Assembly: GCA_963718235.1 (NCBI GenBank)
Contig: CAVQYR010000001.1
Span: 480,001 to 544,000, forward strand
Direction of reading: 5' to 3'
Length of the DNA: 64,000 nucleotides
Origin: an uncultured Actinomycetota bacterium
GTDB lineage: Bacteria; Actinomycetota; Actinomycetes; JAHEKZ01
Part shown: in pieces, positions 15,321 to 31,094 of the stretch
Layout: each line of letters opens with the position of its first letter
Numbering within the stretch: the stretch's first letter is position 1
Notes under the pieces: generated by a model
The model's input: only the letters and a program-made list of their open reading frames with translations
Database searches by the model: none
What the model was told of the DNA's origin: nothing
Position numbers and translations under genes: made by a program

Positions 15321-16553
15321 ATGACGGACGACGACCAGCAGCGAGCACCCAGCGATCGGGCCGAGGCCGCGGTCGCGGACTTCCTGGCCGCGGTGACCGT
15401 CGACGACCTGGACCGAGACCCCTACCCGATCTACGCCCGCCTTCGCCGCGAGGCACCAGTGGCTCACGTACCTGCGGTCGACACCTGGTTCGTCACTCGG
15501 TACGACGACGTCACCTTCGTCGCCGAGCACCCCGAGCTGTTCCCCGCCGAGCACGGTGAGTCCCCGGTCGAGGTCACCTTCGGCAAGCCCACCTTGATCA
15601 CCGTCGACGGTCCCGTGCACCACGACCTGCGGCGCAGCTTCGACCCGAACTTCCGCCCACGTCGGGTCCAGGAGTACGTCGACGACCTGGTTCGGCCCTT
15701 GGCCCTTCGTCGCGCCGGCGGGCTGACCGGACTTAGTGAGGCCGAGCTGATGGCGGAGTACTTCGAGCCGATCTCGGTGCTCAGCCTCGCGTCGGTGCTC
15801 GGTCTTGGGGACGTCGACGTCGAGACGCTGCGGCGCTGGTTCCACGGCATGAACCTCGGTGCGACGAACTTCGAGCGCGACCCGGACAAGCAGGCCGAGG
15901 CGGATGCCGTCTGCGCCGAGATCGACGCAGTCGCCGTCCCGCGCATGGAGCGACTCCTGACCGAGCCCGACGACTCGACGATGTCCCACCTGCTCCATGC
16001 GGGCGCTCCGCAGGGTCAGCCGCGGGCGATCGAGCACGTGCTGCCTTCGCTGAAGGTCGCGATCCTGGGCGGGATGCAGGAACCCGGGCACGCCGCCGGC
16101 ACCGTGATGTGTGGTCTGTTCAGCCAGCCGGACCAGCTGGCTGAGGTTCGCTCCGACCCGGTCGCGATGGTGGTCCCGGCGGTCGAGGAGGGCCTGCGGT
16201 GGGTCGCGCCGATCGGCACCCAGTTCCGTACGGCGGGCCGCGACGTCGAGCTCGGCGGAGCCACGATCCCCGCGGGGGCCGGAGTCTCCGCAGTGCTGGC
16301 GTCGGCCAACCGCGACGAGTCGCTGTTCGACGACCCGGACCGGTTCGACCTGCACCGCTCCAACCGCAAGCAGGCCGCCTTCGGCTTCGGCAAGCACTTC
16401 TGCTCCGGCCACTCCTTCGCCCGAAGGCAGATGCAGATCGCGGTCGAGGTGCTGTTCGCCACGTGCCCGGACGTGCGACCGGTACCGGACCGACCGGCCC
16501 GCTTCCGTGGCTGGGAGTTCAGGGCGCCGGCGGAGCTACCGGTCCTGCTGTAG
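15321..16553 (+). CDS. Cytochrome P450, CYP255/GcoA-like (aromatic O-dealkylase-like)
   Basis: EGLRW, FGFGKHFCSG heme motif; I-helix GGMQEPGH (GcoA has GAMQEPGH); GcoA-like segments TFGKP, DDLVRPLA, FRGWEFRAP. Confidence 0.85.
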   Translation: MTDDDQQRAPSDRAEAAVADFLAAVTVDDLDRDPYPIYARLRREAPVAHVPAVDTWFVTRYDDVTFVAEHPELFPAEHGESPVEVTFGKPTLITVDGPVHHDLRRSFDPNFRPRRVQEYVDDLVRPLALRRAGGLTGLSEAELMAEYFEPISVLSLASVLGLGDVDVETLRRWFHGMNLGATNFERDPDKQAEADAVCAEIDAVAVPRMERLLTEPDDSTMSHLLHAGAPQGQPRAIEHVLPSLKVAILGGMQEPGHAAGTVMCGLFSQPDQLAEVRSDPVAMVVPAVEEGLRWVAPIGTQFRTAGRDVELGGATIPAGAGVSAVLASANRDESLFDDPDRFDLHRSNRKQAAFGFGKHFCSGHSFARRQMQIAVEVLFATCPDVRPVPDRPARFRGWEFRAPAELPVLL

Positions 16554-17270
16554 CCGGGCGGCGTCGACGAAGGCGCGCACGATCGCCCTCTGCTGCGCGT
16601 CGTCGGCCATGTCCTCCGGGTGCCACTGCACGCCGAGGAACCACCAGCCGTCGCGACCCACGGTCGCGACCGCCTCGACGGTGCCGTCGTCCGCCCTGGC
16701 CAACGTCCGCAGACCCGCACCCAGTGTGTCGATGCGCTGGTGGTGGTAGCACGAGACGGCGAGGTCGTCGGTGACGTCGACTCCCTTGGGCCAGCCGTCG
16801 CCGTCGACCTCGACGGTGTGCCGCACCTCGGTGTGCACGACCTCGCGGTGAGGCTCCTCCATGTGCTGCTCGAGGGTTCCGCCCAACGCCACGTTGACGA
16901 CGTGCAGTCCACGGCAGACCGCGAGCAGCGGAACGCCACGGTCGAGCGCCCAGGTGGCTACTGCGAGGTCCATGGAGTCCTGCACGGTGTCGACGTCGTA
17001 GAGATGCTCGGAGTCGACGTCCTGGCCGTAGCGGCGTGGGTCGAGGTCGCCACCGCCGGGCAGCAGGATCCCGTCGATGAAGCTCAGCCGCTCACCTACC
17101 TCCTGGGGACTGAGTGCGTCGACATCGGGCCACGGCAGCAGGGACAGGGGCTCACCGCCGGCCTCATGGACCATCGTGAGCAGCGCTCGCGCGTTGACGG
17201 CAGCGGCGTACCTGAGGGCCGAGGTGGCGGCGGCGAACCGGGCCGGGATGCCGATCAGCGGGCGACTCAC
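16536..17270 (-). CDS. Gamma-glutamyl-amide hydrolase, PuuD/peptidase C26 family
   Basis: LLPGGGDLDP, LLAVCRG, YHHQ, GVQWHPE. Confidence 0.88.
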   Translation of the reverse strand: MSRPLIGIPARFAAATSALRYAAAVNARALLTMVHEAGGEPLSLLPWPDVDALSPQEVGERLSFIDGILLPGGGDLDPRRYGQDVDSEHLYDVDTVQDSMDLAVATWALDRGVPLLAVCRGLHVVNVALGGTLEQHMEEPHREVVHTEVRHTVEVDGDGWPKGVDVTDDLAVSCYHHQRIDTLGAGLRTLARADDGTVEAVATVGRDGWWFLGVQWHPEDMADDAQQRAIVRAFVDAARLQQDR

Positions 17271-18514
17271 CCGGCAGCGACCTTCACCGGGAATCGCTTG
17301 ATGCCATGGATGAAGTTCGAACGCACGTGCTCGACCTCACCGTTCAGCTCGAGGTGGACGTCGCGGCGCAGGAGCTCCTCGATCATGATCCGGACCTCCA
17401 GGCGCGCCAGCTGGTTGCCCAGGCAGAAGTGCGGACCGCCCTTGCCGAACGTCACGTGGTCGTTGTTCGTGCGCTTGATGTCGAAGACGTCGGGGGCTTC
17501 GAAGACAGCCTCGTCCCGGTTGCCGGAGGCGTACCACATGACGACTTTGTCGCCTTCTCGGATACTCCGGCCGTGCAGCTCGTGGTCGCGGGTCGCGGTG
17601 CGGCGGAAGTGGTAGACGGGTGAGGCCCAGCGCAGGAACTCCTCGACCGCTGCGGGAAGGAGCTCGGGCTGCTCGCGCAGTGTCTCCGCGGCGTCGGGAT
17701 GCTCGATGAGTGCCCGCATGGTGTGCGACAGCGTGTGCCGGGTCGTCTCGTTGCCAGCGGCGACCAGTAGCAGGAAGTAGTTGTGGAAGTCACGCTCGGA
17801 CAGCGGGACGCCGTCCTCTGGCACCTGGTTCACGAGCTTGCTGACGAGGTCGGTTCCGGAGCCTCCTTGGCGTTCACGGGCGAGGGAGTCGCCGTAGGCG
17901 AAGACCTCGAGTGCGGCAGGGGAGCGGAACGGAAGGTCGCGGTACTGCTCGGACTCCTCGCTCTCCAGCAGGACGTCGGCATAGTCGGGGTCGGTGTTGC
18001 CGACCAGCCGGTTGCTCCACTTGATGAACTGGTCACCCATCTCGTCGGGAACGTCCATCAGGCGGACCAGCACCCGGATCGGGTAGTCGGCGCTGACCGA
18101 CTTCACGAAGTCGAACTCGCCCTGGGCGAACGCAGCGTCCAAGGTGACCGCAGTGAGTCCGCGCAGGAATGTCTCGTAACCGGCCAGGCCACGTGCGGTG
18201 AACTCCCGCTGCAGCAGGCGGCGCAGGGCCCAGTGGCGGGCGCCGTCGGTCTCGAGCATCGACTTGCGCACCTCGAGCTGCGAGGCATCCAGCTCTTCGA
18301 TGCCCACCGCCCCGCGCTCGGAGGAGTACGTCTCGTCGTCCCGGCCGACCGCGACGATGTCGTCGTGGCGGGTCAGCGACCAGAAGCCGTGGTTCGGGGA
18401 AGGCTCGGGGTTCCAGTGGACCGGAGCCTGCTCGCGCAGCACGCGGAACGCGCCCCAGGGGGCGCCACCGGCGAAGAGGTCGAGGTCGGAGAGGTCGATG
18501 TCGTCAGGGGTCAC
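17267..18514 (-). CDS. Cytochrome P450
   Basis: AGNETT, EEFLRW, SGNRDE, FGKGGPHFCLG. Confidence 0.93.
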   Translation of the reverse strand: MTPDDIDLSDLDLFAGGAPWGAFRVLREQAPVHWNPEPSPNHGFWSLTRHDDIVAVGRDDETYSSERGAVGIEELDASQLEVRKSMLETDGARHWALRRLLQREFTARGLAGYETFLRGLTAVTLDAAFAQGEFDFVKSVSADYPIRVLVRLMDVPDEMGDQFIKWSNRLVGNTDPDYADVLLESEESEQYRDLPFRSPAALEVFAYGDSLARERQGGSGTDLVSKLVNQVPEDGVPLSERDFHNYFLLLVAAGNETTRHTLSHTMRALIEHPDAAETLREQPELLPAAVEEFLRWASPVYHFRRTATRDHELHGRSIREGDKVVMWYASGNRDEAVFEAPDVFDIKRTNNDHVTFGKGGPHFCLGNQLARLEVRIMIEELLRRDVHLELNGEVEHVRSNFIHGIKRFPVKVAAG

Positions 18515-18545: not shown

Positions 18546-19895
18546 TCAGAGGTGGTAGGAGTACTCGCGGAACTCCCAGTCGGTGACGAAGCGCTCGAAG
18601 CGCTCGATCTCGTTGCGCTTGTAGGTGACGAACGAGGTCACGAAGTACTCGCCCAGGGCCTCGCCGAGCACCGTGTCGGCCTCCAGCGCGTCGAGGGCGG
18701 CGACGAGGGTCTGCGGCAGCATCGGTGCGGACTCGGGGTCGTAGCCGTAGCCCTCCAGTGGCGCCGGAAGCTCGAGCTTGTCCCGCACGCCGATGTAGAT
18801 CGCGGCACCGACCGCCGCCATGATCAGGTACGGGTTGGCCGTGGCGTCGCCCAGCCGGACCTCCATCCGGGCGCCGGGGCCGCGCTCCGGCGGGACGCGC
18901 AGCATCGCGCTGCGGTTGTCCAGGCCCCAGTCGATGAGCCAGGGGGCCAGGGTGTCCGGGCCGAACCGCTTGTAGGAGTTGATCGTGGGGTTCGCGATGG
19001 CGGCGAGCGCGGGGGCGTGACGCAGGACACCGGCGATCGCGTGGCGTCCGACGGCTGAAAGGCCGTGCTCGCCGTCGGGGTCGCCGAACACGTTGGTTCC
19101 GGCGTCGTCGTTGAGCGAGACGTGGAGGTGGAAGCCGGAGCCGCCCTCGTCGTTGAAGGGCTTGGCCATGAAGGTGGCGAGCATGCCCTCGTAGCGGGCG
19201 ATCTCCTGGACGGCCGACTTCATCCGGAAGGCCCGGTCGGCGGCATCGACCAGCTCGGTGTGGTTGAGGTTGATCTCGAACTGACCTGGACTGAACTCGT
19301 GGTTGGCCGCGGTCACTTGCAGATCTGCGTCACGTAGCCAGCGCAGCGTGCGCAGCAGGATGCCGTTGGGGTCGCCCTTGCGGCCGACGACATAGACGTT
19401 GCCGGTGCTGTCGGCGTACCGGCTGTACCCGCTCGGCGTCGACGGGTCGGGTTCGCAGAGGTAGTACTCGAGCTCGGGTCCCACGATCGCGGTCAGGCCG
19501 ACCTCGGACAGCAGCCCCGCAACGCGGCGTACGACGTTGCGCGGTGACTCCGGTGCGGGAGACCCGTCGACCAGGAAGGCGTCGCCGAGGCAGCTTCGCG
19601 CTCCGGGCTCCCAGGGCATCGGTGCCAAGGTGGCGAAGTCGGGTCTGACCAGCACGTCGGGGAGCCCGGCCTCGATGCCTCCCTGCACCGGGACGACGTC
19701 GCCCATCGGGCTGGTGTGGTAGGTCGCCCGGCAGAAGGCCATTCCGTGTCCAGCGGCGGTCTTGAGCTCATCGATGAGGACGTCACGCCCTCGGTCGACC
19801 CCGATCATGTCGGGGAACGAGACGCGCACGACGTCGATCCCCTCGGAGCGCAGCTGCTCCACAACCTGCCGGACGTCCGCGCTCTCGCTGCCCAC
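18546..19895 (-). CDS. Glutamine synthetase-like gamma-glutamyl-amine ligase (PuuA/IpuC/GlnA3-4-like)
   Basis: GPELEYY, HEFSPGQFE, TFMAKP, GSGFHLH, NSYKRF, DNRSAMLRVP, EVRLGD. AGGAGG RBS before GTG 19895; co-oriented with a P450 and a PuuD-like gene. Confidence 0.85.
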   Translation of the reverse strand: MGSESADVRQVVEQLRSEGIDVVRVSFPDMIGVDRGRDVLIDELKTAAGHGMAFCRATYHTSPMGDVVPVQGGIEAGLPDVLVRPDFATLAPMPWEPGARSCLGDAFLVDGSPAPESPRNVVRRVAGLLSEVGLTAIVGPELEYYLCEPDPSTPSGYSRYADSTGNVYVVGRKGDPNGILLRTLRWLRDADLQVTAANHEFSPGQFEINLNHTELVDAADRAFRMKSAVQEIARYEGMLATFMAKPFNDEGGSGFHLHVSLNDDAGTNVFGDPDGEHGLSAVGRHAIAGVLRHAPALAAIANPTINSYKRFGPDTLAPWLIDWGLDNRSAMLRVPPERGPGARMEVRLGDATANPYLIMAAVGAAIYIGVRDKLELPAPLEGYGYDPESAPMLPQTLVAALDALEADTVLGEALGEYFVTSFVTYKRNEIERFERFVTDWEFREYSYHL

Positions 19896-19913: not shown

Positions 19914-19927
19914 GTTTGGACCCGAAC
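19914..19927. promoter_or_regulatory. Operator copy 1 (GTTTGGACCCGAAC)
   Basis: Imperfect palindrome between the divergent GS-like and LLM genes; one of five similar sites. Confidence 0.7.
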
Positions 19928-20029: not shown

Positions 20030-20965
20030 GTGCCCGTTCCGAAGCTGCTCCTCGTGCTCAGCGAGAACTGGACCCTCACCTCGCCCCGAGACCTTCGGGG
20101 TCTGGTCCGGATCGCGGTCGAGGCCGAGCAGGCCGGAGTCGACGGGGTCATGCTGAGCGAGCACGTCGTGCTCGGGGGGTCGGCAGGATCCGAGGGGGTC
20201 ATGGCGAACCCCCGGGACTACGCGCTGCCGGGCAACCAGGAGCCGGACATGCCGTGGCCGAGCTCGCTGGTGCTCCTGTCGGCGATCGCGGCCGTCACCG
20301 AGCGGCTGCGGCTCGTGGCGGGGGCGATCATCGCTCCTCTTCGGCATCCGCTTCTGCTGGCGCGTGAGCTCGGCACCCTGGACCTGCTCGCCGAGGGGCG
20401 GCTCGTCGTGATCCCCACCGTGAGCTGGCACCAGGACGAGTACGACGCGCTGGGGGTGCCCTTCCGCATGCGTGGGGCGATCCTGGACGAGCAGCTGGAG
20501 GTGCTGGGCAAGGCGTGGGGGCCTGGTCCGTTCTCCCACGAGGGGTCGTTCTTCCGGTTCGACGACGTGTGGCTGGAGCCGCACCCGTACCGAGAGCAGG
20601 GTCCGGTGCTGTGGTTCGGGGGGCAGCGGATGCATGGGGCCCTGCTTCGCCGGCTGGTGCGGTACGGCTCCGGGTTCAACCCGCTCGGGCGTCCGAGCGA
20701 CGAGGACCTCGGGCTGCTCCGACAGGGCATGCTGGACGCCGGCCGCGACCCCGGTGAGCTGGAGCTCGTCGGGGGCATCCGCGGCCGCTTCCCTGACGCC
20801 GTGGGTCCAGCGGACCTCGACGAGGCGCTCGCGTCGGTGCCCAGCCAGGTGGAGCGCGGGTTCACCACGCTGTGCTTCAAACCGTCGATGTACATCGACG
20901 ACGCGCGCGACGTCGCACTGCTGTGCCGGTCCATCGCGACCAAGCTGGAGGCGCTCGGCTGCTGA
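20030..20965 (+). CDS. LLM-class flavin/F420-dependent oxidoreductase
   Basis: DGVMLSEHV, LSAIAAVTERLRL, LRHPLLLARELGTLDLLAEGRL; AGGAGG RBS before GTG 20030. Confidence 0.85.
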   Translation: MPVPKLLLVLSENWTLTSPRDLRGLVRIAVEAEQAGVDGVMLSEHVVLGGSAGSEGVMANPRDYALPGNQEPDMPWPSSLVLLSAIAAVTERLRLVAGAIIAPLRHPLLLARELGTLDLLAEGRLVVIPTVSWHQDEYDALGVPFRMRGAILDEQLEVLGKAWGPGPFSHEGSFFRFDDVWLEPHPYREQGPVLWFGGQRMHGALLRRLVRYGSGFNPLGRPSDEDLGLLRQGMLDAGRDPGELELVGGIRGRFPDAVGPADLDEALASVPSQVERGFTTLCFKPSMYIDDARDVALLCRSIATKLEALGC

Positions 20966-21016: not shown

Positions 21017-21030
21017 GTACGGACCCGAAC
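21017..21030. promoter_or_regulatory. Operator copy 2 (GTACGGACCCGAAC)
   Basis: Directly after the -10-like TAACCT and before the RBS of the ADC-family gene. Confidence 0.65.
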
Positions 21031-21043: not shown

Positions 21044-21847
21044 GTGGCTGAGCTCGGTGGATTCCTACCGCCCTACACCCCCTCGGGGCGGTCGGCGCTC
21101 GTCCCCTCCCCACCGTGGCACTACTCCGGCGACCTCCTGACGGTCGAGTACCGGACCGACCCCGAGCGGGTGGCTGCCCTGCTGCCCGCCGGGGTCGATC
21201 CGGCCCCGGCGGACCCAGGCGCGGTCGCGCTGATCTGGGCCGACTGGCAGTCGTGCTCCGACGGCGGTGAGGAGCTGCTCGACCCGGCGCGCTCGCAGTA
21301 CAAGGAGGCGTTCGCCGTCGTCCGCTGCAGCCATGCAGGTGTTACCTACTCGCGGTGCGCGCTGATCTGGGTGACTACCGACTTCGCGATCGGGCGCGGG
21401 CTGCACCAGGGGTACCCGAAGAAGCTCGGGTCGATCCAGATGACCCGGCCCATGCCCCACGGGAAGGCCGCCCCGCGCGTCGGGGCCGGAGGTCGCTTCG
21501 GGGCGACGCTGGCCGCCTACGACCACCGCCTGGCCACCGCCCAGATCACCTTGACCCACCCCAACGAGACCAATGGGTTCGTCAACGACCTCCCGATGCT
21601 GCACAACCGTCAGGTCCGGGCGATCGAGCGGGACGGCGGGCTGGTCCTCGACGAGCTGATCACGATGTCGGGTTACGACGCCGACCTGGGCCAGCCCTGG
21701 GCCGCTGACGCGCAGCTCGAGCTGTCCGACTCGCCCTGGGACGAGCTCGCCTCGGTGCTGCCGGTCCGGGAGATCATCGGCGGGTTCTACCGACAGGTCG
21801 GTGTCAGCTGGAACGGCGGAACCACGGTGGAGCGCCGTCCCATCTGA
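21044..21847 (+). CDS. Acetoacetate decarboxylase-like superfamily protein (MppR/Sbi00515-like)
   Basis: PPWHYSG, ADWQ, LDPARSQYKE, RGLHQGYPKKLG (Schiff-base Lys). Confidence 0.85.
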   Translation: MAELGGFLPPYTPSGRSALVPSPPWHYSGDLLTVEYRTDPERVAALLPAGVDPAPADPGAVALIWADWQSCSDGGEELLDPARSQYKEAFAVVRCSHAGVTYSRCALIWVTTDFAIGRGLHQGYPKKLGSIQMTRPMPHGKAAPRVGAGGRFGATLAAYDHRLATAQITLTHPNETNGFVNDLPMLHNRQVRAIERDGGLVLDELITMSGYDADLGQPWAADAQLELSDSPWDELASVLPVREIIGGFYRQVGVSWNGGTTVERRPI

Positions 21848-21856: not shown

Positions 21857-23116
21857 TCAGCGAGTGGTGACGGCGACCGGCATGCGCTTGACGCCGTTGA
21901 CGAAGTTGGAGCGCACGCGCTCGACCGAACCGTCCAGCCGTGCGGTGTCGACCCGGGCGACGAGCTCCTCGAGGGTGACCCGCAGCTCGAGCCGCGCCAG
22001 GTGTGACCCCATGCAGAAGTGCGGTCCCCCCTTGCCGAACGTGAGCAGGTCGACGCTGGGCCGGTCGAGGTCGATCTCGTCGGGGTGGTCGATGGCCCGT
22101 TCGTCGCGGTTGCCCGCCGCGAACCAGATCGCGACCTTGTCGCCGGCCTTCATCTGCACACCGTTGAGCTCGACGTCCTTGGTTGTCGTGCGCCGCATGT
22201 GGTGCACCGGCGGTCCCCAGCGCAGCATCTCGTCGAGAGCCGGTCCTTGCAGCAGCTCCGGCTGCTCCTGCAGGCGCACGAGAACCTGTGGTTGGTCGAT
22301 CAGCGTGAGCATGGCCAGCGTGATGGCCTGCCGGGTGGTCTCCTGGCCCGCCAGGGCGAGCAGCAGGAAGTAGTTGTCGAGGTCCTGCTGGGTGAGCTTC
22401 TCTCCCTCGACCTCCGCCTGGACCAGCCGGGTGATCACGTCGTCGGTCGGCTGAGCCCGACGTTGGGCCTGAACCTCGCGGCCGTACTCGAACACCTCGA
22501 GTGCGGCAGGGGAGCGGAACGGAACGAGTCGGTACTCCTCGCTCTCCTCAGAGCCGAGCAGGACGTCGGCGAGCTCCGGGTCGGTGTGGCCCACGAGCCG
22601 GTCCCCCCACGAGGTGAGCTGGTTGCGGTCCTCGTCGGGAACCGAAAGCAGGCGGCACAGAACGCGCACCGGAATCTCGCTGGAAACCGCGTGCACGAAG
22701 TCGAAGGTCGAGGACGCGAGTGCGTGGTCGAGGGTGTGGGCGACGATGCCCCTGAGGAAGGTCTCGTACCCGTTGATCACCCGGGGGAAGAACGCGCTGG
22801 CCGCAACCTTGCGCAGCTCGGCGTGCCGTGGCGGGTCGGTGTCGATGAGTGCGCGGCGCACCTTGAGCTGCTCGTCGTCGAGCTCCTCGAGGGACACCCC
22901 TCGGCTCGACGTGAAGGTCTCCCAGTCGCGGCTGACGTGGACGATGTCGGCGTGCCGGGTCACCGACCAGAATCCGGTGTGCGGCGCATCCTCCGGGGTC
23001 CACGCAACGGGCGCCTCGTCGCGCAGATGCTTGTACAGGGCCCACGGAGGTCCGGCCGAGAAGGTGTCAGGGTCGGCCAAGGGTGCAGCCAGTGCGCCGC
23101 CGTCCGGAGTGGTCAT
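21857..23116 (-). CDS. Cytochrome P450, paralogue of 17267-18514
   Basis: AGQETT, EMLRW, FGKGGPHFCMG; ATG 23116 preceded by GGAAGG. Confidence 0.92.
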   Translation of the reverse strand: MTTPDGGALAAPLADPDTFSAGPPWALYKHLRDEAPVAWTPEDAPHTGFWSVTRHADIVHVSRDWETFTSSRGVSLEELDDEQLKVRRALIDTDPPRHAELRKVAASAFFPRVINGYETFLRGIVAHTLDHALASSTFDFVHAVSSEIPVRVLCRLLSVPDEDRNQLTSWGDRLVGHTDPELADVLLGSEESEEYRLVPFRSPAALEVFEYGREVQAQRRAQPTDDVITRLVQAEVEGEKLTQQDLDNYFLLLALAGQETTRQAITLAMLTLIDQPQVLVRLQEQPELLQGPALDEMLRWGPPVHHMRRTTTKDVELNGVQMKAGDKVAIWFAAGNRDERAIDHPDEIDLDRPSVDLLTFGKGGPHFCMGSHLARLELRVTLEELVARVDTARLDGSVERVRSNFVNGVKRMPVAVTTR

Positions 23117-23142: not shown

Positions 23143-23156
23143 GTTCGTTGCCAAAC
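23143..23156. promoter_or_regulatory. Operator copy 3 (GTTCGTTGCCAAAC)
   Basis: Between the divergent P450 and GATase genes. Confidence 0.6.
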
Positions 23157-23229
23157 GTTCTCGCAGCGGGGATGCTAGAGCCTCGATCGGTTGTTCGGAA
23201 GGGCAAGACGTCGCTGATTGGGGTGGGCC

Positions 23230-23940
23230 GTGCGCGTGCTGTTCGTCCAGCAGGACCACGTGTCTCCCACCGGACCGGTGGGAGACGCCTTCGCGTCCCG
23301 GGGATACGACGTCCAGGAGTTCCTGGTCGTTCCCGAGGAGCACTTCCACGCACCAGCCGTCGTAGCCGACTTCCCGGATCCCCTGTCCTATGACGCGCTG
23401 GTGCCGATGGGCGCGCCCTGGTCGGTGTACGACCACGACACGATCGGCACGTGGATTCGCGACGAGATCGACTTCCTGCGCACGGCTCACGAGGCGGGTG
23501 TGCCGATCCTGGGCATCTGCTTCGGCGGCCAGGCGCTGGCGGCCGCGCTGGGCGGTGCGGTCATTCCGGCGGAGCGCCCTGAGGTCGGTTGGACGACGGT
23601 CGACACCGACCGGCCCGACCTGGTCGAACCGGGGCCGTGGTTCCAGTGGCACGGCGACCGGTGGGTGCTGCCCGAGGGTGTGCCCGCCTTCGCCCGCACC
23701 GAGCTCGCCGACCAGGCGTTCGTGGTGGAGCGCTCGCTCGGCCTCCAGTTCCATCCCGAGCTGACGCCCTCGATGCTCGACGGCTGGCTGGACAACGGCG
23801 GAGACGAGCACGCCGCCGCGCTCGGGATCGACGCCCAGCAGCTGCGGGACGAGACAGCGCGCGGAGCCGCCGAGGCGGCCGAGCGAGCAACCCGCCTGGT
23901 CGACGTCTTCCTCGACCGTGTGGCCACGGCCGGTCGGTGA
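23230..23940 (+). CDS. Type 1 glutamine amidotransferase-like (gamma-glutamyl hydrolase candidate)
   Basis: ILGICFGGQ, EVGW, QWHGD, LQFHPE. Confidence 0.88.
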   Translation: MRVLFVQQDHVSPTGPVGDAFASRGYDVQEFLVVPEEHFHAPAVVADFPDPLSYDALVPMGAPWSVYDHDTIGTWIRDEIDFLRTAHEAGVPILGICFGGQALAAALGGAVIPAERPEVGWTTVDTDRPDLVEPGPWFQWHGDRWVLPEGVPAFARTELADQAFVVERSLGLQFHPELTPSMLDGWLDNGGDEHAAALGIDAQQLRDETARGAAEAAERATRLVDVFLDRVATAGR

Positions 23941-24083: not shown

Positions 24084-24602
24084 ATGGCCGGCCAGCACAC
24101 GCTCACCGAGACCGAGCGCGCCGTGGGTGACCGACTCGCGTCGATGTCGCTCGACATGGCGGCCATGGCAGCTGTGAGCAACATCTACCGCGCGGCGGGG
24201 GCGATCCGGAACCGGTTCGAGCGAACCGTTCTCGCGCCGGCCGACCTCACCTGGACGGCCTGGGTCGTCCTGTGGGTCGTGTGGATCTGGGAGGACATCG
24301 AGTCCCGGCACGTCGCTACGGAGGCCGGGATCTCCAAGGGGACCCTCACGGGCGTGGCGAGCACCCTGGAGCGTCGCGGTCTGCTTCGCCGCCGGACCCA
24401 CCCCGACGACGCACGGCGAGTTCTGCTCTCGCTCACACCGGCCGGCAAGCGCCTGATGGGAAAGCTGTTCCCGCAGTTCAACGCGCAGGAGGCCGAGGTC
24501 GTCCAGCCGCTCGGCGCACGTGAGACCCAGGTTCTGACCACGGCGCTGCGCAAGATCGTGATGGGCCTGGAGGAGCCGACCGAATCCCCCGCGACTTCTT
24601 GA
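24084..24602 (+). CDS. MarR family transcriptional regulator
   Basis: DLTWTAWVVL...GISKGTLTGVASTLERRGLLRRRTHPDDARRVLLSLTPAG winged helix. Confidence 0.9.
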   Translation: MAGQHTLTETERAVGDRLASMSLDMAAMAAVSNIYRAAGAIRNRFERTVLAPADLTWTAWVVLWVVWIWEDIESRHVATEAGISKGTLTGVASTLERRGLLRRRTHPDDARRVLLSLTPAGKRLMGKLFPQFNAQEAEVVQPLGARETQVLTTALRKIVMGLEEPTESPATS

Positions 24603-24638
24603 CGCCCTTCTCGACGTCACATATGTTCGGCCCCGAAC
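24599..24638 (+). promoter_or_regulatory. Sigma-A-type promoter (TTGACG-N17-TATGTT) overlapped by operator copy 4 (GTTCGGCCCCGAAC, 24625-24638)
   Basis: Canonical 17-bp spacing; the operator with perfect arms overlaps the -10 element, a repressor geometry. Confidence 0.75.
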
Positions 24639-24689: not shown

Positions 24690-26156
24690 ATGACGATGGC
24701 CACGGTCGACGGCGTCGCGGTCGACACCCGGCACTGGATCGGTGGTCGTCGGGTCGAGAGCGCAGAGACCTTCGACGACGTGTCGCCCATCGACGAGCAG
24801 GTGATCGCCCAGGTCTCGCGGGGCCGTTCCGACGTGGCCGATGCTGCGGTGGCCGCGGCGCGAGACGCGTTTCCCGCGTGGGCGGCCACGTCACCGGAGG
24901 AGCGCTCGCGCATCCTCCATGCCGTTGCGGACGGCGTGGAGGCTCGGCTGGAGGACCTCGCCCGCCTCGAGACCCGTGACAACGGGTCCCTGATCCGGTC
25001 GCACCGTCGCGGCGTCATGCCCCGCGTGGCGATGAACTTCCGGTTCTTCGCCGACCACCTGCTGAAGCTGCACCACGACGACTTCGAGACGCGAGGGCAC
25101 CGCAACCACGTCAGCTGGGACCCGGCCGGGGTCACCGCCGTCATCACGCCGTGGAACGCTCCACTGATGCTGGCCACGTGGCGGATCGCGCCGGCCCTGG
25201 CAGCCGGGAACACCGTGGTGGCCAAGCCGCCGGAGTGGGCGCCGCTCACGGCCTCTCTGTTGGCCGACATCGCTGCTGAGGCCGGGCTGCCCGACGGGGT
25301 GTTCAACGTCGTGCAGGGGTTCGGGGCGGAGGCAGGCGCACCGATCGTGGAGCACCGCGACGTCCGCCGGATCAGCTTCACCGGCTCGGTGCCGACCGCA
25401 CGGACGATCGGTGCCGCTGCAGCCGCCAACGTCACCCCGGTCTCGTTCGAGCTGGGCGGCAAGTCCCCGCTCCTCGTCTTCGAGGACGCCGACCTCGACC
25501 TCGCCGTCGACCTCGCCGTCGAGCAGTACGACAACACGGGCCAGGTGTGCCTGGCGGCCGTCCGTCTCCTCGTCCACGAGTCGCTGGCCGACCAGTTCAC
25601 CGAGGCCTTCCTGGCCAGGGCGGCGTCGATCAGGCAGGGCGATCCCCGCGACGAGACCACCGACATCGGGCCCCTGATCAGCCGCCGGCACTTCGAGCGG
25701 GTCGACGGGTTCGTCCAGCGCGCCAAGGCGAGTGGTGCCACCGCGCTGCTGGGAGGGGGACCCAACGCCGACCTCGGTGGTCTCTACTACCGGCCCACCC
25801 TGTTCGTGGGGGCAGCCCCGGCGAGCGAGATCCTGTGCGACGAGGTGTTCGGTCCGGTGCTCACCCTGCAGACCTTCCGCACCGAGGCCGAGGCCGTGGC
25901 CATGGCCAACGCCACGAGGTACGGCCTGGCCGCGACGCTCGTCACCGGTGACCGGGCACGCGCCGAACGCGTGAGCAGCCAGCTCTCCGCCGGCACCGTC
26001 TGGGTCAACTGCTTCTTCGTGCGTGACCTGAGTGCCCCGTTCGGCGGCAACGGCGACTCCGGGATCGGACGCGAGGGCGGCACCTGGAGCTTCGACTTCT
26101 ACTGCGACGTGAAGAACAGCGTCTTCGCACCGAAGGGATGGATCGACCATGGGTGA
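24690..26156 (+). CDS. Aldehyde dehydrogenase, 2-hydroxymuconic semialdehyde dehydrogenase (HpaE/XylG)-like
   Basis: ITPWNAP, SFTGS, FELGGKSP, GQVCLA, EVFGPV, WVNCFFVRDLSAPFGG. Confidence 0.88.
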   Translation: MTMATVDGVAVDTRHWIGGRRVESAETFDDVSPIDEQVIAQVSRGRSDVADAAVAAARDAFPAWAATSPEERSRILHAVADGVEARLEDLARLETRDNGSLIRSHRRGVMPRVAMNFRFFADHLLKLHHDDFETRGHRNHVSWDPAGVTAVITPWNAPLMLATWRIAPALAAGNTVVAKPPEWAPLTASLLADIAAEAGLPDGVFNVVQGFGAEAGAPIVEHRDVRRISFTGSVPTARTIGAAAAANVTPVSFELGGKSPLLVFEDADLDLAVDLAVEQYDNTGQVCLAAVRLLVHESLADQFTEAFLARAASIRQGDPRDETTDIGPLISRRHFERVDGFVQRAKASGATALLGGGPNADLGGLYYRPTLFVGAAPASEILCDEVFGPVLTLQTFRTEAEAVAMANATRYGLAATLVTGDRARAERVSSQLSAGTVWVNCFFVRDLSAPFGGNGDSGIGREGGTWSFDFYCDVKNSVFAPKGWIDHG

Positions 26157-27099
26157 GGTCGTCGGCGCCGGGATCCTCGCGCACGTCCCGACCATCATGC
26201 TTCCCCCGGAGACCCGGTTGGCCCTCAACGCGGGCCGAGAGATCAGTCTCGTCCCGGCATTGCACCAGCTGCGGCGGGAGGTGTTCGAGACCCTCGACTA
26301 CGACACGGTCGTGGTGCTGGACTCCCACTGGTTCACCACGGTGGAGTTCGTCGTGACCGCCCAGGGTCGCCGGGCGGGGCTGTTCACCGCCGAGGAGCTG
26401 CCGAGAGGCATGACCCGGATCCCCTACGACTGGGTCGGTGACCCCGAGCTGGCCGAGACGATGGCTGGGCTTGGGCCCAGGCACAGCACGTGGGTCACCG
26501 CCAACGACGATCCCTACCTCCCGCTCTACTATGCGACCCTGAACCTCTGGAAGTTCCTCGGTGAGGGTCTCGACAAGCGGTGGGTCACCGTCAGTACCTG
26601 CCAGACGGGGGAGACCGAGGACTTCCTGCGCGCCGGTCGCGCCCTGGGCGACGCCATCGAGCAGACTGACCGCAAGGTGCTGCTGGTCGCGTCCGGAGCG
26701 TTGTCGCACACCTTCTGGAAGCTGCGCGAGCTGCGTGACCACGAGGCCAGCGACCCCGAGCACATCCGGACCCCCGAGGCGTACGCCGCTGACCTGGAGC
26801 GGATCGCCTGGTTCGAGCAGGGGGACCACGCCCAGGTACTCGCGACGATGCCGGAGTTCCTGAAGTACAGACCGGAGGCGATGTTCGCCCACTACCTGAT
26901 GATGGCTGGGGCGCTCGGTGAGGACCGGCTGGCGGCTCCTGCGCGCCGGTTCGGCGAGTACGAGAACTCGATCGGAACCGGACAGGTCCACCTCTGGTTC
27001 GACCGGCCGTCGGGCGGTTTCCCCCGACCGGCGAGCACACCGAGCGACCCCGAGTACGTCCGCCAGATGGGTGGACCCGACCTGGTGGCCGCGGGCTGA
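26149..27099 (+). CDS. Extradiol ring-cleavage dioxygenase, LigB/HpaD-type
   Basis: AHVPTI, DSHW, GDPELA, ASGALSHTF. Confidence 0.85.
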   Translation: MGEVVGAGILAHVPTIMLPPETRLALNAGREISLVPALHQLRREVFETLDYDTVVVLDSHWFTTVEFVVTAQGRRAGLFTAEELPRGMTRIPYDWVGDPELAETMAGLGPRHSTWVTANDDPYLPLYYATLNLWKFLGEGLDKRWVTVSTCQTGETEDFLRAGRALGDAIEQTDRKVLLVASGALSHTFWKLRELRDHEASDPEHIRTPEAYAADLERIAWFEQGDHAQVLATMPEFLKYRPEAMFAHYLMMAGALGEDRLAAPARRFGEYENSIGTGQVHLWFDRPSGGFPRPASTPSDPEYVRQMGGPDLVAAG

Positions 27100-27115: not shown

Positions 27116-27961
27116 GTGACCGAGTACCGACGCATCGTGCTGGACGGCAACGTCGTCCGGGTCAGGCGTGAGGGCAACACCCTGCGGTCAGCAGACGGGC
27201 GCGAGACGTCGGTCGACGAGGCTATCCATCTCCCGCCGGTCGAGCCGACCAAGATCGTGGCCGTGCACCTGAACCACATCAGCCGGGTGAACGAGTTCCA
27301 GATCGGGCTGCCGACCACGCCGACCTACTTCCACAAGCCCATCTCGTCGTTGAACGCGCACAAGGGCGCGGTGGTACGTCCCGAGCGGTGCAAGTGGCTG
27401 AACTACGAGGGCGAGGTGGCGATCGTCATCGGTCGTACCGCCCGTAACATCTCCCCGGCGGAGGCGGGCGACTACATCGCCGGCTACACGGTGGCCAACG
27501 ACTACGGGCTGCACGACTTCCGCGACACCGACGCGGGGTCGATGCTGCGGGTGAAGGGGTCGGACACGCTGTGTCCACTCGGTCCCGGTCTGGTGACCGA
27601 CTGGGACTTCCGGGGCAAGGGCCTGCGCACCCTGGTCAACGGCGAGGTGCGCCAGGACGGGAACACCGACGAGATGACCTGGGACATGCACTACCTCGTC
27701 GCCGACATCGCCCGCACGATCACCCTGGTACCGGGCGACGTGCTGCTGTCCGGCACGCCGGCGAACTCCCGCACGGTCTACCCGGGCGACGTCGTCGAGG
27801 TGGAGGTCGAGGGGCTGGGAACCCTGAGCAACCACATCGTGCAGGGGCCGGTGCCCATCCGCGACGACGTGGGCGCCCAGCCCACCGAGTCCGAAGAGGT
27901 GCTGTCCACGGCCCTCGGCGGAGACTGGGAGTTTCGGGGCGTGCGCGCTCCACAGCGGTGA
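27116..27961 (+). CDS. Fumarylacetoacetate hydrolase family (HpaG-like)
   Basis: YFHKP, YEGEVAIVIG, GYTVANDYG, TLVPGDVLLSGTP. Confidence 0.88.
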   Translation: MTEYRRIVLDGNVVRVRREGNTLRSADGRETSVDEAIHLPPVEPTKIVAVHLNHISRVNEFQIGLPTTPTYFHKPISSLNAHKGAVVRPERCKWLNYEGEVAIVIGRTARNISPAEAGDYIAGYTVANDYGLHDFRDTDAGSMLRVKGSDTLCPLGPGLVTDWDFRGKGLRTLVNGEVRQDGNTDEMTWDMHYLVADIARTITLVPGDVLLSGTPANSRTVYPGDVVEVEVEGLGTLSNHIVQGPVPIRDDVGAQPTESEEVLSTALGGDWEFRGVRAPQR

Positions 27962-27999
27962 CATCCACTCACATCGAACAGCAGCGATCAGGAGGGTTC

Positions 28000-28194
28000 A
28001 TGAAGGTCGTCGTCGACATGGACAAGTGCCAGGACCACGGGCAGTGCGCCTTCGAGGCGCCCGAGGTCTTCCAGATCGACGCCGGGACCGGCAAGCTCGT
28101 GGTCCTGACCGACGAGCCGGACGAGGCGCTGCGCGACAAGGTCGAGGCCGCCGCCGACGTCTGCCCGGTCCAGGCCATCGAGATCGTGGACTGA
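28000..28194 (+). CDS. Ferredoxin ([3Fe-4S]-type, P450-associated)
   Basis: CQDHGQC...CPVQAI, 64 aa; AGGAGG RBS. Confidence 0.9.
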   Translation: MKVVVDMDKCQDHGQCAFEAPEVFQIDAGTGKLVVLTDEPDEALRDKVEAAADVCPVQAIEIVD

Positions 28195-28198
28195 CCGG

Positions 28199-29418
28199 AT
28201 GACCCGTGTCGTCGTCGTCGGGGCCGGCATGGCGGGACTGCGCACTTCGGAGTCCCTGCGCAAGAGTGGCTACGACGACGAGCTCGTCGTCGTCGGCGAG
28301 GAGATCCACCTGCCGTACAACCGGCCCCCGCTGTCCAAGGAGGTGCTGGCCGCAGAGGTGCACCACGAGAAGGTGGCCTTTCCGCTGCGCACTGCCCTGG
28401 GCGAGATCGACTGGCGGCTCGGCTGCCGGGCCACGGGACTCGACCGGGACAGGCGCGCAGTCACCCTCGACGACGGCGAAGTGCTGGAGTTCGACGGGCT
28501 GGTGGTGGCCACCGGCCTCCGTCCACGGCGCCTCGACCTGCCCGGCCCGCCGCCCGACCCGGCAGCGGGTCGCCATGTCCTGCGGACGCTGGATGACGCG
28601 GCCCGACTGCGCGACGAGCTCGTCCCGGGAGCCCGGGTCGTCGTGCTCGGGGCCGGCTTCATCGGCTGCGAGGTCGCTGCCACGGCCCGCGGACTCGGCT
28701 GCGACGTCGTCAGTGTGGCGATCGACCCCTTCCCGATGGTGCGTCCGCTGGGTCCTGCTCTGGGCGCGGAGATGCAGCGTCGGCACGAGGAGCAGGGCGT
28801 GCGGTTCCGGCTCGGCGTGGGGATCGTCGGGTACACCGGCGACGACCGAGTCACGGGTGTGGAGCTCGCCAACGGCGAGACCCTGCGGGCCGATGTGGTC
28901 GTCGAGGCGATCAGCAGCCACTGCAACACCGAGTGGCTGGCGGGCTCGGGGTATGACCTCACGGACGGGCTCTCTGTGCGACAACGTGCTGCGGGTGGTG
29001 CGTCGAGGACGGTGTCGTGGAGGACGGAGTCCACGTCGTCGGTGACCTTGCACGCTTCCCCAACCCGCTCTTCGACGACGTCCCGCGTCGGGTCGAGCAC
29101 TGGAACATCCCTACCGAGACGGGTAAGCGGGTCGGGCCCGCCTTGGCGGCGTACCTGCGTGGTGACGGCTACGACGAGGCGCTCAGCAAGTCGTTTGCGC
29201 CCCTTCCGGCGTTCTGGTCCGACCAGTACGACATTCGGCTCCAGTCCTACGGCATGCCCGGCCTGGCCGACCCCGAGGGGATCGCGGTCCTCGAGGGTGA
29301 CCTGTCCGGGGAGGTCGTGGTCGGGTACCACCGCGGCGACATTCTCGTGGGTGTGGTCGGCCTGGGCATGCTGCCACGCGTCAACAGCTATCGGCCACTG
29401 ATCGGCACGGTTGCATAA
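28199..29418 (+). CDS. Ferredoxin reductase; frameshift near 28970
   Basis: GAGMAG, PYNRPPLSK and GAGFIGCE in the first frame; VVGDLA, RVEHW and FWSDQY in the second. Confidence 0.88.
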
Positions 29419-29499
29419 CGGCTCGGGCGAACTGGTGAGTAGTTCCCTCGAAAGCCTTGACAAGACCCCGTAATCCCGAGACTCTCGGCGCAATCTTTC

Positions 29500-29513
29500 G
29501 TTCGGCCCCATAC
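29500..29513. promoter_or_regulatory. Operator copy 5 (GTTCGGCCCCATAC, flanked by TTTC...GAAA)
   Basis: Downstream of TTGACA (29457) and ~30 nt before the permease start. Confidence 0.65.
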
Positions 29514-29544
29514 GAAACCAGACCCCTCGACTCTGGAGAACCGC

Positions 29545-31094
29545 ATGGACCAGCTCAAGCCCGCACCCGAAGAGACCGCTGGTACCGCCCTGCGCAAGGG
29601 CAGGCTCGGCGTTGCCGGCGTCGTCTTCTTCGTCGTCGCAGCGGCCGCTCCCCTGGTGGGCATGACCGGTGCGGTGCCGGTGGCCATCGTGCTCGGCAAC
29701 GGGGCTGCAGTTCCCGGCGCCTACGTCGCAGTCGGCATCACGCTGCTGCTGTTCAGCGTCGGCTACGCCGCGATGAGCCACCGGGTGACCAACACCGGTG
29801 CCTTCTTCGCCTACGTGGGTCGGGGTCTGGGCATCGGCCCCGGCGTGGGAAGCGCCTTCGTGTCGCTCGTGGCGTACTTGGCCGTCCAGCTGGCGATCTT
29901 TGGCTTCTTCGGCGCGGTCGCCTCCGCGGAGCTTGCCGACAAGATCAGCATCGACTGGCCCTGGTACGTGGTGGAGCCTGATCGCGTGGGCTCTCGTGAC
30001 CGCACTCTCGCTCTTCAGCGTCGATGTCGGCGCCAAGGTGCTCGGGGTCTTCATGACTTTGGAGGTGCTGTCACTGTTCATCATGGCGCTCGCTGTCCTC
30101 TTTACCGGCGGCGGCCCCGACGGGTTCGATCTCAACGCCTCCTTCGCCCCTAACAACGTTCTCGTGGGCGGGCTTGGCGGGACCGCGGGCATTGCGCTGG
30201 CTTTTGCTTTCGCCTCCTACATCGGATTCGAGGCCACCGCGATCTACGGTGAGGAGTCCAAGGACCCGAAGCGGACTGTCCCGAGAGCCACGTACATCGC
30301 GGTCATCCTGATCACGGTCCTGTTCGGCCTTTCGACCTTCGCGATCGTCACGGCGCTCGGCTCGAAGGACGTCGTGAACCAGGTCGTGGCGACTAGCTGG
30401 AGACGACTTGGGCAACCCGGCCAACGTCGTGTTCACCGTGGCCGAGCAGAGCGTCGGCGACTGGCTCGGGAGCTGGGCCGGGTCGTTGGTCTCGAACACC
30501 ATGGAGTGGCTGGTCCTGAGCAGTCTGTTCGCCGGGCTCCTGGCTTTTCAGAATTCGGCAGCTCGCTACTTCTTCTCCATGGGCCGGGCCGGCGTCCTGC
30601 CCACCGCGTTGGACCGGGTGAACAAGTGGGGAGCGCCGCAGGTGGCCACTCTCACGACCTCGGTGATTTCCCTTGCGGTGATCGTCACCTTCTGGCTGAC
30701 CGACAAGGACCCCGTCACCAACCTGTTCTTCTGGTTCAGCGGGCTGGCGGTGCTGGCCATCGTGCTCGTCGAGATCCTCGTCAGCATCGCCGTCATCGCC
30801 TACTTCACCCGGACCAAGGAGGACAAGCGGGTCTGGAACACGATCATCGCGCCCGTTCTTGCGATCATCGGGCTCGCGGTAGGGATGTATCTGCTGATGT
30901 CCCGCTTTGGGCTGCTCGGCGGCTCCGACACGATCCAGAGCACAGTGGACCCAACGACGCAGGCCTGGGGGCTGAGCGCCCTTGGCTGGACGCTCGTCCT
31001 GCTGCCGTTCGCTATGTTCTTGATCGGCTGGGTGATCGGTCTGCTGCGCAAGTCCGAGGAGAACGAGGACGCCGTCAAGGACCTCGTCACCTGA
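29545..31094 (+). CDS. APC family amino acid/amine permease; frameshifts near 29968 and 30400
   Basis: FFVVAAAAPL, GAFFAYV, FASYIGFEATAIYGEE, ARYFFSMGRAGVLP across three consecutive frames. Confidence 0.85.

Follow-up and report, generated by a model that had tools for sequence, protein, structure and literature searches.

Gene content and organization of the locus

A 64-kb window of DNA (the whole stretch analyzed; contig CAVQYR010000001.1, approximately 69% GC) from an uncultured member of the Actinomycetota was found to contain a gene cluster that combines a glutamine synthetase (GS)-like ligase, cytochromes P450 and ring-cleavage enzymes, and for which a role in the catabolism of arylethylamines is tentatively proposed here. 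The source genome comprised 3.17 Mb in two contigs and was 95% complete. Genes were called by third-position GC content, the open reading frames (ORFs) of the window were scanned against Pfam and NCBIfam, and start codons were then refined. An original prediction had read the cluster as a pathway in which an aromatic amine is imported, glutamylated, oxidized to a catechol by a P450 and ring-cleaved. All of the genes that it named were recovered by ORF calling and with Pfam and NCBIfam. Its two P450s were among them, and a third at 15321-16553, with the decarboxylase gene before it, just outside the span that it had covered (16536-31094), brought the total to three. As it had stated, no amine oxidase or aminotransferase domain was detected with Pfam among the called ORFs of the window. 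A genome search for a copper amine oxidase also returned nothing, which is a weak blank: the control was also silent in Escherichia coli, which carries tynA.

The genes of the cluster and the decarboxylase-P450a pair preceding it were as follows (strand after the coordinates, Pfam family and score in brackets).

13880-15301, +, group II pyridoxal phosphate (PLP)-dependent decarboxylase, aromatic-amino-acid-decarboxylase-like (Pyridoxal_deC, 2.7e-52)
15321-16553, +, P450a, CYP255A/GcoA-like, starting 20 nt past the decarboxylase gene
16536-17270, -, C26a, PuuD-like gamma-glutamyl amide hydrolase (Peptidase_C26, 1.2e-46)
17267-18514, -, P450b, CYP125/CYP124-like
18546-19895, -, putative GS-like gamma-glutamyl-amine ligase, 449 amino acids (Gln-synt_C, 1.2e-99)
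20030-20965, +, LLM-class oxidoreductase, probably F420-dependent (Bac_luciferase, 1.8e-34)
21044-21847, +, acetoacetate decarboxylase (ADC)-superfamily protein, MppR/Sbi00515-like (ADC, PF06314, 1.3e-52)
21857-23116, -, P450c, paralogue of P450b
23218-23940, +, class I glutamine amidotransferase (GATase)-like hydrolase, start uncertain between 23218 and 23278 (GATase, 5.5e-14)
24084-24602, +, MarR-family regulator, HpaR-like
24690-26156, +, HpaE-like aldehyde dehydrogenase (ALDH), ring-fission semialdehyde dehydrogenase (Aldedh, 4.5e-160)
26149-27099, +, LigB-type class III extradiol dioxygenase (LigB, PF02900, 2.7e-17)
27116-27961, +, FAH-family enzyme, HpaG-like decarboxylase/isomerase or hydratase (FAA_hydrolase, 1.9e-55)
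28000-28194, +, small Fe-S ferredoxin, putative P450 redox partner (Fer4_13, 2.4e-14)
28199-29401, +, FAD ferredoxin reductase, HcaD-/AndAa-like, below the NCBIfam cut-off (Pyr_redox_2, 2.6e-50)
29545-31094, +, APC-family permease, written in three frames

The ligase, P450b and C26a genes formed a tightly packed minus-strand operon, with a 31-nt gap followed by a 4-nt overlap of the C26a start and the P450b stop. The plus-strand operon consisted of the ALDH, LigB dioxygenase, FAH, ferredoxin and ferredoxin reductase genes, the latter two thus lying within the ring-cleavage operon.

A common operator-like palindrome

A 14-bp palindrome, GTTCGNNNCCRAAC, was present in five promoter gaps of the cluster (ligase/LLM, ADC, P450c/GATase, MarR-ALDH and permease).

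19914-19927, palindrome 1, between the divergent ligase and LLM genes, preceding the ligase start by 19 nt
21017-21030, palindrome 2, preceding the ADC-family gene by 14 nt, one mismatch
23143-23156, palindrome 3, in the divergent P450c/GATase gap, exact match
24625-24638, palindrome 4, perfectly palindromic, preceding the ALDH operon by 52 nt
29500-29513, palindrome 5, preceding the permease start by 32 nt, one mismatch

The motif was found by reading the promoter gaps, and was missed by a strict palindrome scan; a repeat search over 13-34 kb of the window returned, apart from chance matches, just the paralogy of P450b and P450c. When up to one mismatch was allowed, the palindrome gave 10 strand-matches at seven places in the window, compared with an expectation of 2.59 ± 1.72, and 10 matches were reached in none of 100 shuffles. 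Five of the seven places were promoter gaps of the cluster, including all three exact matches. In 21 of the 80 related loci described below, an exact copy also preceded the ligase gene by no more than approximately 250 nt. The repeated palindromes stand in promoter gaps beside the gene of a MarR-family protein, the arrangement expected of a MarR-operator regulon. The best NCBIfam model for this protein was HpaR (TIGR02337; 62.5 bits, below the cut-off of 121.2), and it is presumed to be the repressor acting on the palindromes.

Conservation of the cluster as one unit

Related loci were taken as the best 80 of at least 568 public-genome stretches with ligase orthologues at 59-77% identity (individual loci are labelled L001, L003 and so on, and protein families among them f8 and f9). 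They spanned metagenome-assembled genomes labelled Nanopelagicales, Kineosporiaceae and Streptosporangiaceae together with Streptomyces, Kitasatospora, Actinomadura, Actinoplanes, Blastococcus, Longivirga and others; these loci are kin, and counts across them overstate their independence. Complete 10-kb flanks were available for 52 of the 80, and a threshold of at least 40% identity was used for homologues. The LigB dioxygenase was present in 51 of the 52 full-flank loci, the ADC-family and FAH genes in 50 each, a P450b-like (CYP125-like) gene in 48, the MarR gene in 46, the ALDH in 45 and the ferredoxin reductase in 18. The four lower-pathway genes were found all together in 43. Since the grouping recurs in the 80 related loci, it exceeds chance.

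A reverse survey, in which orthologues of the dioxygenase were sought in 300 other sampled genomes of the phylum, detected them in 24 (25 of 301 counting the source genome). A GS-like gene was located within 15 kb of the dioxygenase gene in 16 of these 24 genomes; in the remainder it was 27 kb away (one genome), approximately 930 kb away (one) or on a different contig in a fragmented assembly (six). Most of the dioxygenase-linked genomes belonged to other classes, and the linked ligase was only 36-41% identical in them, which indicates that the linkage is old. According to the original prediction, a lack of co-occurrence in other genomes would have counted against it. The modules did co-occur, across actinobacterial families and from both the ligase and the dioxygenase side, and in the window they have a palindrome in common, so that the view of the modules as one unit stands. 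These genes make up a genuine actinobacterial set that is conserved widely and is predicted to be under joint regulation.

Three neighboring genes, which had neither an operator nor a conserved linkage, were rejected as members. These were a GNAT gene (31087-31632, -) with homologues in only two of the 80 loci (31-32% identity), a second C26 hydrolase gene (approximately 33113-33898, +) whose product was 37% identical to C26a, and an ORF at 31690-33240 (-; 516 codons, one predicted membrane helix, no Pfam match). In loci L001, L002, L005 and L007, genes for a DoxX-like membrane protein and a second MarR-type regulator adjoined the ligase gene, just downstream of it.

The ligase has an altered ammonium pocket

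The ligase scored below all NCBIfam cut-offs for GS and PuuA, with 288 of 470 bits for type III GS, 278.8 of 429.15 bits for type I GlnA (TIGR00653) and 263.2 of 650 bits for gamma-glutamylputrescine synthetase (PuuA, NF045547). It matched PDB 8wwu, a GS-like chain of 510 amino acids, at 2.6e-53. The catalytic Asp (Asp50 equivalent) was kept in the ligase and in the eight orthologues aligned with it, and all nine carried GDVVP and GNVYVV in place of the FDGSS and GGYF motifs. With 'VVP' replacing 'GSS' and Val at the position of Tyr179, two residues of the ammonium pocket were lost, the Ser and Tyr positions of the GS motifs being what we take to be that pocket. Five GS-family genes were encoded in the source genome, two of which look like true GS and keep FDGSS and GGYF. 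The altered pocket positions bear out the earlier claim that the ligase is not an ordinary glutamine synthetase. Another GS-like paralogue (G000:C2:439701-442119) was directly followed by an aldehyde dehydrogenase gene and may belong to a separate Puu-like module.

Oxygenases associated with the ligase

The PDB match of P450b was 8vxi ('CYP125MRCA', 1.5e-116), with CYP124, CYP125 and CYP268 at approximately 1e-69. A P450b-like gene was often located directly downstream of the ligase gene in related loci. Exactly one CYP125-like P450 was present in 44 of the 52 full-flank loci and two in only three. P450c, which was 53% identical to P450b over 406 amino acids and had an intact heme Cys motif and ETT pair, is an extra copy present in few loci.

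P450a had full-length PDB matches to 8u09 (2.8e-94) and to 6ycn, the P450 subunit of an aromatic O-demethylase (1.3e-86). It aligned with GcoA (5ncb; 7.2e-86 over residues 21-408), with which it has the I-helix motif MQEPGH in common. It thus belongs with the CYP255A (GcoA-like) enzymes, and an O-demethylase role is predicted from its sequence. GcoA-like P450s with 54-74% identity to P450a were encoded in seven of the 80 loci, and in L026 the gene immediately followed that of the ligase. Four of the 80 encoded, beside the ligase, a self-sufficient P450 fused to an FNR-like/2Fe-2S reductase (approximately 747 amino acids) (L013, L018 and L043, about 11420-13670; L003, 13282-15585), followed in three of the four by a VanA-like Rieske oxygenase. 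VanA-like Rieske oxygenases were present in 11 of the 80 loci overall. Two of these ligase-coupled oxygenase types, the GcoA-like and the VanA-like, are O-demethylases yielding catechols, and their presence in related loci supports the coupling of the ligase to catechol-forming enzymes that had been predicted. Elsewhere in the window, 9 kb outside the cluster, a Rieske alpha subunit was encoded at 40537-41529 without an operator motif; it adjoins or is fused to an aminomethyltransferase (GCV_T) domain (39657-41529, -) and may be part of a demethylase system.

Ring cleavage and the lower pathway

The dioxygenase was a class III LigB-type enzyme (PF02900, 63.2 bits, cut-off 26.3). Its sole NCBIfam match was HpaD_Fe (TIGR02298; 121.9 bits, below the cut-off of 315.95), and its nearest structure was DHPAO (8iq8, 1.5e-23), with aminophenol dioxygenases at approximately 1e-10. 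Its HVP, DSHW and LSH motifs, mapped by eye, aligned with 8iq8; the ligand roles are those given for LigB in PMC11926856. The best models for the ALDH and the FAH enzyme were HpaE (TIGR02299; 527.2 bits, cut-off 638.35) and the HpaG C-terminal domain (TIGR02303; 205.7 bits, cut-off 276.4), respectively, neither cut-off being reached. The HpaI aldolase (TIGR02311) and the HpaB hydroxylase (PF03241) had no match in the 95%-complete genome.

The ADC-family protein reached 179.1 bits with PF06314 (cut-off 29.8) and 181.6 bits with the MppR model TIGR04460 (cut-off 380); by these scores it is a member of the superfamily and not an MppR equivalog. Over its full length it matched PDB 4jm3 (MppR, 1.2e-44) and 4zbo (1.2e-41), the latter presumably Sbi00515, a pyruvate aldolase-dehydratase. 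MppR condenses pyruvate with aldehydes, as cited in PMC7820114, where ADC-superfamily proteins induced by phenol in S. solfataricus (Saccharolobus) are also described, with a proposed role as meta-pathway aldolase. The hydratase-aldolase step that the cluster otherwise lacks is probably carried out by its ADC-family protein.

Putative gamma-glutamyl hydrolase and associated genes

The best NCBIfam model for C26a was gamma-glutamyl-GABA (4-aminobutyrate) hydrolase (83.5 bits, cut-off 266), and its Cys and HPE motifs were present. A second ALDH was encoded in 14 of the 80 loci. PuuC was the best model for five of the seven that were scanned (511-579 bits, cut-off 850), 50-90 bits above the next. 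In eight of the nine loci showing both genes, the gene of this ALDH immediately preceded that of the C26 hydrolase and had the same orientation; the ALDH was located at the edge of the retrieved DNA in the five remaining second-ALDH loci. The GATase-like protein scored 125 bits with PRK07053 (cut-off 250), carried GICFGGQ and FHPE motifs in its translation and belonged to a family (f8) found in 24 of the 80 loci. The LLM oxidoreductase reached 165.3 bits with TIGR03619, for which the cut-off is 166.9.

Source of the amine and state of the permease

The best PDB matches of the decarboxylase were 4obu (6e-57), which we take to be a gut-bacterial tryptophan decarboxylase, and 7xin ('DOPA decarboxylase', 4.6e-51; DOPA, 3,4-dihydroxyphenylalanine). 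Homologues with at least 40% identity were found in none of the 80 loci; a different family, resembling tyrosine decarboxylase, was present in 16 of them, beside amino-acid permeases. The decarboxylase of the window is a probable feeder step from amino acid to amine, of uncertain membership in the regulon. The permease on which the predicted import of the amine relied is present, and the requirement for import was dropped, given that decarboxylase-like genes adjoin the cluster here and in the 16 loci.

The permease gene had frame shifts near 29968 and 30400. Its tblastn pieces were 84%, 74% and 73% identical to the intact orthologue in L003 and covered residues 1-511. Otherwise identical metagenome contigs had one base fewer at 29970 (runs X2 and X4) and at 30392 (run X1); their depth was 2-3.7, and all four runs came from one freshwater-sediment study that may have covered the source sample. 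Splits also affected further genes of the window: a beta-lactamase-fold gene (2173-3395, +), ftsH (59935-61948, +) and the GcvT-like/Rieske pair (39657-41529, -). Since contigs without one base exist for each shift and other genes, including the essential ftsH, are split as well, the shifts look like assembly errors, and the permease is probably intact in the organism. The pattern suggests one-base assembly errors throughout the genome. The permease family (f9) was present in 21 of the 80 loci, and the NCBIfam scan gave no informative name for the permeases of the cluster. Near the start of the window, a heliorhodopsin was encoded at 1199-2113 (+; Pfam Heliorhodopsin, 7.2e-103).

Proposed pathway and alternative explanations

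Directly established are the gene families, the conservation of the unit, the common operator motif and the altered ligase pocket. Building on these, we tentatively propose that the genes form one catabolic regulon under MarR control, with a tyramine-, dopamine- or 3-methoxytyramine-type arylethylamine as substrate, in which the glutamate tag is kept through ring cleavage; of the readings considered this is the one that we favor, with a little less than even confidence. The amine would be taken up by the APC permease, or produced by the PLP-dependent decarboxylase from its parent amino acid (tyrosine, DOPA or a methoxy analogue), and the GS-like ligase would join it to the gamma-carboxyl of glutamate in an ATP-dependent reaction. 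A P450 that is supplied with electrons by the encoded ferredoxin and reductase would then convert the glutamylated phenol to a catechol, the CYP125-like P450b or P450c by ring hydroxylation and the GcoA-like P450a by O-demethylation of a guaiacol-type ring. The LigB-type dioxygenase would open the ring, the HpaE-like dehydrogenase would oxidize the semialdehyde, the FAH enzyme would decarboxylate or isomerize the product, and the ADC-family hydratase-aldolase would release pyruvate and gamma-glutamyl-4-aminobutanal. A PuuC-like ALDH would convert the latter to gamma-glutamyl-GABA, from which a PuuD-like C26 hydrolase would form GABA and glutamate.

The predicted aldolase products are those expected if a glutamyl-aminoethyl side chain replaces the carboxymethyl group of homoprotocatechuate, and gamma-glutamyl-4-aminobutanal is an intermediate of the Puu pathway. 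Such a product predicts a PuuC-like dehydrogenase and a PuuD-like hydrolase, and this pair was found in related loci. The glutamylation step of the original prediction was kept; removal of glutamate right after hydroxylation, as in the Ipu pathway that it cited, was replaced by probable retention of the tag through ring cleavage, in view of the PuuC-/PuuD-like gene pairs. N-acylation would block both the quinone cyclization of catecholamines and the Schiff-base cyclization of the ring-fission aldehyde. The cluster may further represent a widespread route in which an aromatic amine is gamma-glutamyl-protected all the way from ring hydroxylation or O-demethylation, via extradiol cleavage, to the end of the lower meta-pathway, with an ADC-fold hydratase-aldolase, and which joins polyamine catabolism at gamma-glutamyl-4-aminobutanal/gamma-glutamyl-GABA. 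This wider proposal is possible and is put forward with more reserve.

Several observations weigh against retention of the tag or against parts of the scheme. The cluster in the window is without a PuuC-like ALDH, and the best candidate elsewhere in the genome is distant and split. The hydrolase gene shares a predicted operon with those of the ligase and P450b, which suggests that glutamate is removed right after the P450 step, and no C26 hydrolase was encoded within 10 kb in 30 of the 52 full-flank loci (present in 22). The ALDH-hydrolase pair would also fit oxidation of an arylacetaldehyde together with hydrolysis of glutamine, and phenylacetaldehyde dehydrogenase models were second-best for the second ALDH (441-523 bits). 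For relatives of P450b in the CYP125 and CYP124 families, the known activity is terminal (aliphatic) hydroxylation of lipid and sterol side chains, and they are not known to hydroxylate phenols. The GATase and the LLM oxidoreductase are without an assigned role in the proposed pathway, and neither was universal within 10 kb (22 and 29 of the 52 loci, respectively). No operator motif was found ahead of the decarboxylase-P450a pair in the window scan, so this pair may be an accessory feeder outside the regulon. The kinship of the loci noted above tempers all of these counts, including the favorable ones.

The strongest challenge comes from oxidative deamination by the P450, which we regard as unlikely. 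Hydroxylation at the carbon next to the amide nitrogen would give an arylacetaldehyde and glutamine, an ALDH would yield (di)hydroxyphenylacetate for ordinary homoprotocatechuate meta-cleavage, and the GATase or C26 hydrolase would recycle the glutamine. The lower-pathway proteins and the MarR regulator indeed scored best against Hpa models (HpaE 527, HpaD 122, HpaG-C 206 and HpaR 62.5 bits), but all of these scores were below the equivalog cut-offs. The phenylacetaldehyde dehydrogenase scores of the second ALDH fit this alternative too, as does the standalone GATase that accompanies the ligase in the manner of aniline-type clusters, although a dedicated glutaminase seems needless. In aniline-type pathways the N-substituent is thought to be lost after oxygenation at the carbon bearing the nitrogen. 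With a single CYP125-like P450 in 44 of the 52 loci and no HpaB-type hydroxylase found in the genome, deamination would leave no enzyme for the conversion of tyramine to a catechol, and only dopamine-type substrates would fit. It was ranked below tag retention because tyramine would need a second hydroxylase, which was not seen in most loci. The O-demethylase-type oxygenases encoded right after the ligase gene also point to ring chemistry on the glutamylated compound. Rather improbable, in our estimate, is a protect-oxidize-deprotect sequence like that of the Ipu pathway, in which the ligase, P450b and the hydrolase would produce a free dopamine-type catecholamine, to be cleaved with its amine free and degraded to 4-aminobutanal and GABA. 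The tight ligase-P450b-C26a operon argues for it, since the Ipu pathway has the same ligase-P450-hydrolase order. Against this, the hydrolase was paired with a PuuC-like ALDH, and not with a P450, in the eight of nine assessable loci of other lineages, and it was missing near the ligase in the 30 loci mentioned above. Free-amine ring-fission products of DOPA moreover cyclize spontaneously to betalamic acid or muscaflavin, according to PMC11926856, and such cyclization would drain the pathway.

A ring-bound arylamine of the aniline or aminophenol type as substrate, processed as in the Tdn, Atd and Npa systems with a P450 substituting for the Rieske dioxygenase, appears very unlikely. The pairing of GS-like and GATase genes, the match of the ligase to the GS-like chain 8wwu and the distant relationship of the dioxygenase to aminophenol 1,6-dioxygenases (approximately 1e-10) are consistent with it, but the dioxygenase was closer to DHPAO (1.5e-23), no two-component Rieske dioxygenase was encoded at 13-31 kb of the window, and the cluster repeatedly includes genes for aromatic-amino-acid-decarboxylase-like enzymes and for amino-acid permeases. 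Least probable of all, and barely credible, is that there is no single pathway, with a polyamine or ethanolamine glutamylation module merely lying beside a meta-cleavage operon, or that the genes form a secondary-metabolite set. Each module alone does resemble a known system, and MppR-like proteins, to judge from the model name, occur in antibiotic biosynthesis. Separate modules are difficult to reconcile with co-occurrence in both search directions and across classes, with an operator motif common to five promoter gaps and with P450 redox partners inside the ring-cleavage operon; as to secondary metabolism, the Pfam scan of the window revealed no non-ribosomal peptide synthetase, polyketide synthase or other scaffold genes.

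Relation to characterized systems

The cluster is like a hybrid of the Puu, Ipu, aniline-type and homoprotocatechuate systems. It is a member of none of the four, since the equivalog thresholds were not reached and PuuB, a Rieske dioxygenase, HpaB and HpaI were missing. The Puu pathway of E. coli consists of the ligase PuuA, the FAD oxidase PuuB, the aldehyde dehydrogenase PuuC and the hydrolase PuuD. As in that pathway, a GS-like ligase is predicted to tag the amine with glutamate and a C26 hydrolase, with gamma-glutamyl-GABA hydrolase as its best model, to remove the tag; a PuuC-like ALDH preceded the hydrolase in eight loci, and the proposed gamma-glutamyl-GABA is a Puu intermediate. Unlike in the Puu pathway, P450s and a ring-cleavage set come between tagging and untagging, and no PuuB-type oxidase domain was found in the cluster, which thus did not hold the full set of ligase, PuuB, PuuC and PuuD. 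The proteins also fell short of the Puu cut-offs (ligase 263 of 650 bits, hydrolase 83.5 of 266, ALDH 511-579 of 850).

The isopropylamine (Ipu) pathway was reportedly described from Pseudomonas sp. KIE171 by de Azevedo Waesch et al. in 2002. Its glutamyl group serves as a handle and protecting group for P450 oxidation. The cluster had the architecture of an Ipu-type module, with the ligase, P450 and gamma-glutamyl hydrolase in the same order (operon 19895-16536, -) and a ferredoxin and reductase (28000-29401); this likeness is one of architecture only. The Ipu pathway differs in that it takes a small aliphatic amine, ends in alaninol and involves no ring cleavage.

In aniline-type pathways, a GATase-like protein (AtdA2/TdnT) and a Rieske dioxygenase lead to catechol, which then undergoes meta-cleavage. 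The GS-like ligase of the aniline and 1-naphthylamine pathways is AtdA1, TdnQ or NpaA1; papers on such pathways include PMC11335346 and PMC4539516. A GS-like ligase and a class I GATase-like protein ahead of oxygenation and meta-cleavage are common to these pathways and the cluster. The cluster differs in its use of P450s, or of VanA-like single-component Rieske enzymes in other loci; no Rieske dioxygenase was encoded between 13 and 31 kb, and the decarboxylases and amino-acid permeases point to arylethylamines instead of ring-bound amines.

Resemblance to the homoprotocatechuate pathway lies in the best models (HpaE, HpaD, HpaG and HpaR) and in DHPAO as the nearest structure of the dioxygenase. 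That pathway is encoded by hpaGEDFHI in E. coli W, and its regulator HpaR is the subject of a description in PMC7180172. In contrast to that pathway, all scores were below the equivalog cut-offs, the cluster encoded no equivalent of HpaB, HpaI, HpaH or HpaF, an ADC-family protein stands at the hydratase-aldolase place, and the dioxygenase subfamily was nearly always linked to a GS-like gene. That protein belongs to the same Pfam family as MppR and Sbi00515, whose structures were both matched over the full length, and their Schiff-base chemistry with pyruvate and aldehydes, run in reverse, is what a meta-pathway hydratase-aldolase needs; it differs from MppR in its score and in its context, which appears catabolic and not that of enduracididine biosynthesis. 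GcoA (CYP255A) is the guaiacol O-demethylase of Amycolatopsis. P450a resembles it in the full-length alignment and the unusual MQEPGH I-helix motif, and differs in that a ferredoxin and reductase pair is encoded nearby and that its presumed substrate is a glutamylated methoxyphenol amine instead of guaiacol.

No paper describing the combination was found in the literature searched, which omits most subscription journals; the original prediction, too, knew of no characterized pathway of this kind. Searches for gamma-glutamyl-tyramine and gamma-glutamyl-dopamine yielded nothing on bacterial catabolism, as judged from titles and the opening of abstracts, and the nearest papers concerned the cofactors methanofuran and methylofuran.

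Implications

Decay of protein and plant material commonly yields tyramine, dopamine and their methyl ethers, and textbook bacterial routes for amines begin with an amine oxidase or a transaminase. The cluster, in which neither enzyme was found, is conserved across many actinobacterial families and is carried by existing isolates, for example of Longivirga, Blastococcus, Kitasatospora and Actinomadura, and it apparently encodes an undescribed route for biogenic aromatic amines. If the proposed pathway is correct, it would give bacteria a new way of recycling tyramine and catecholamines that needs neither an amine oxidase nor a transaminase, and the glutamyl moiety would act as a protecting group that stays in place while the aromatic ring is cleaved. 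A physiological role would be found for an orphan branch of the acetoacetate decarboxylase superfamily, and a large clade of CYP125-like P450s, the GS-like clade and the LigB clade would gain substrates. The catabolism of aromatic amines in these bacteria would then be linked to the GABA shunt.

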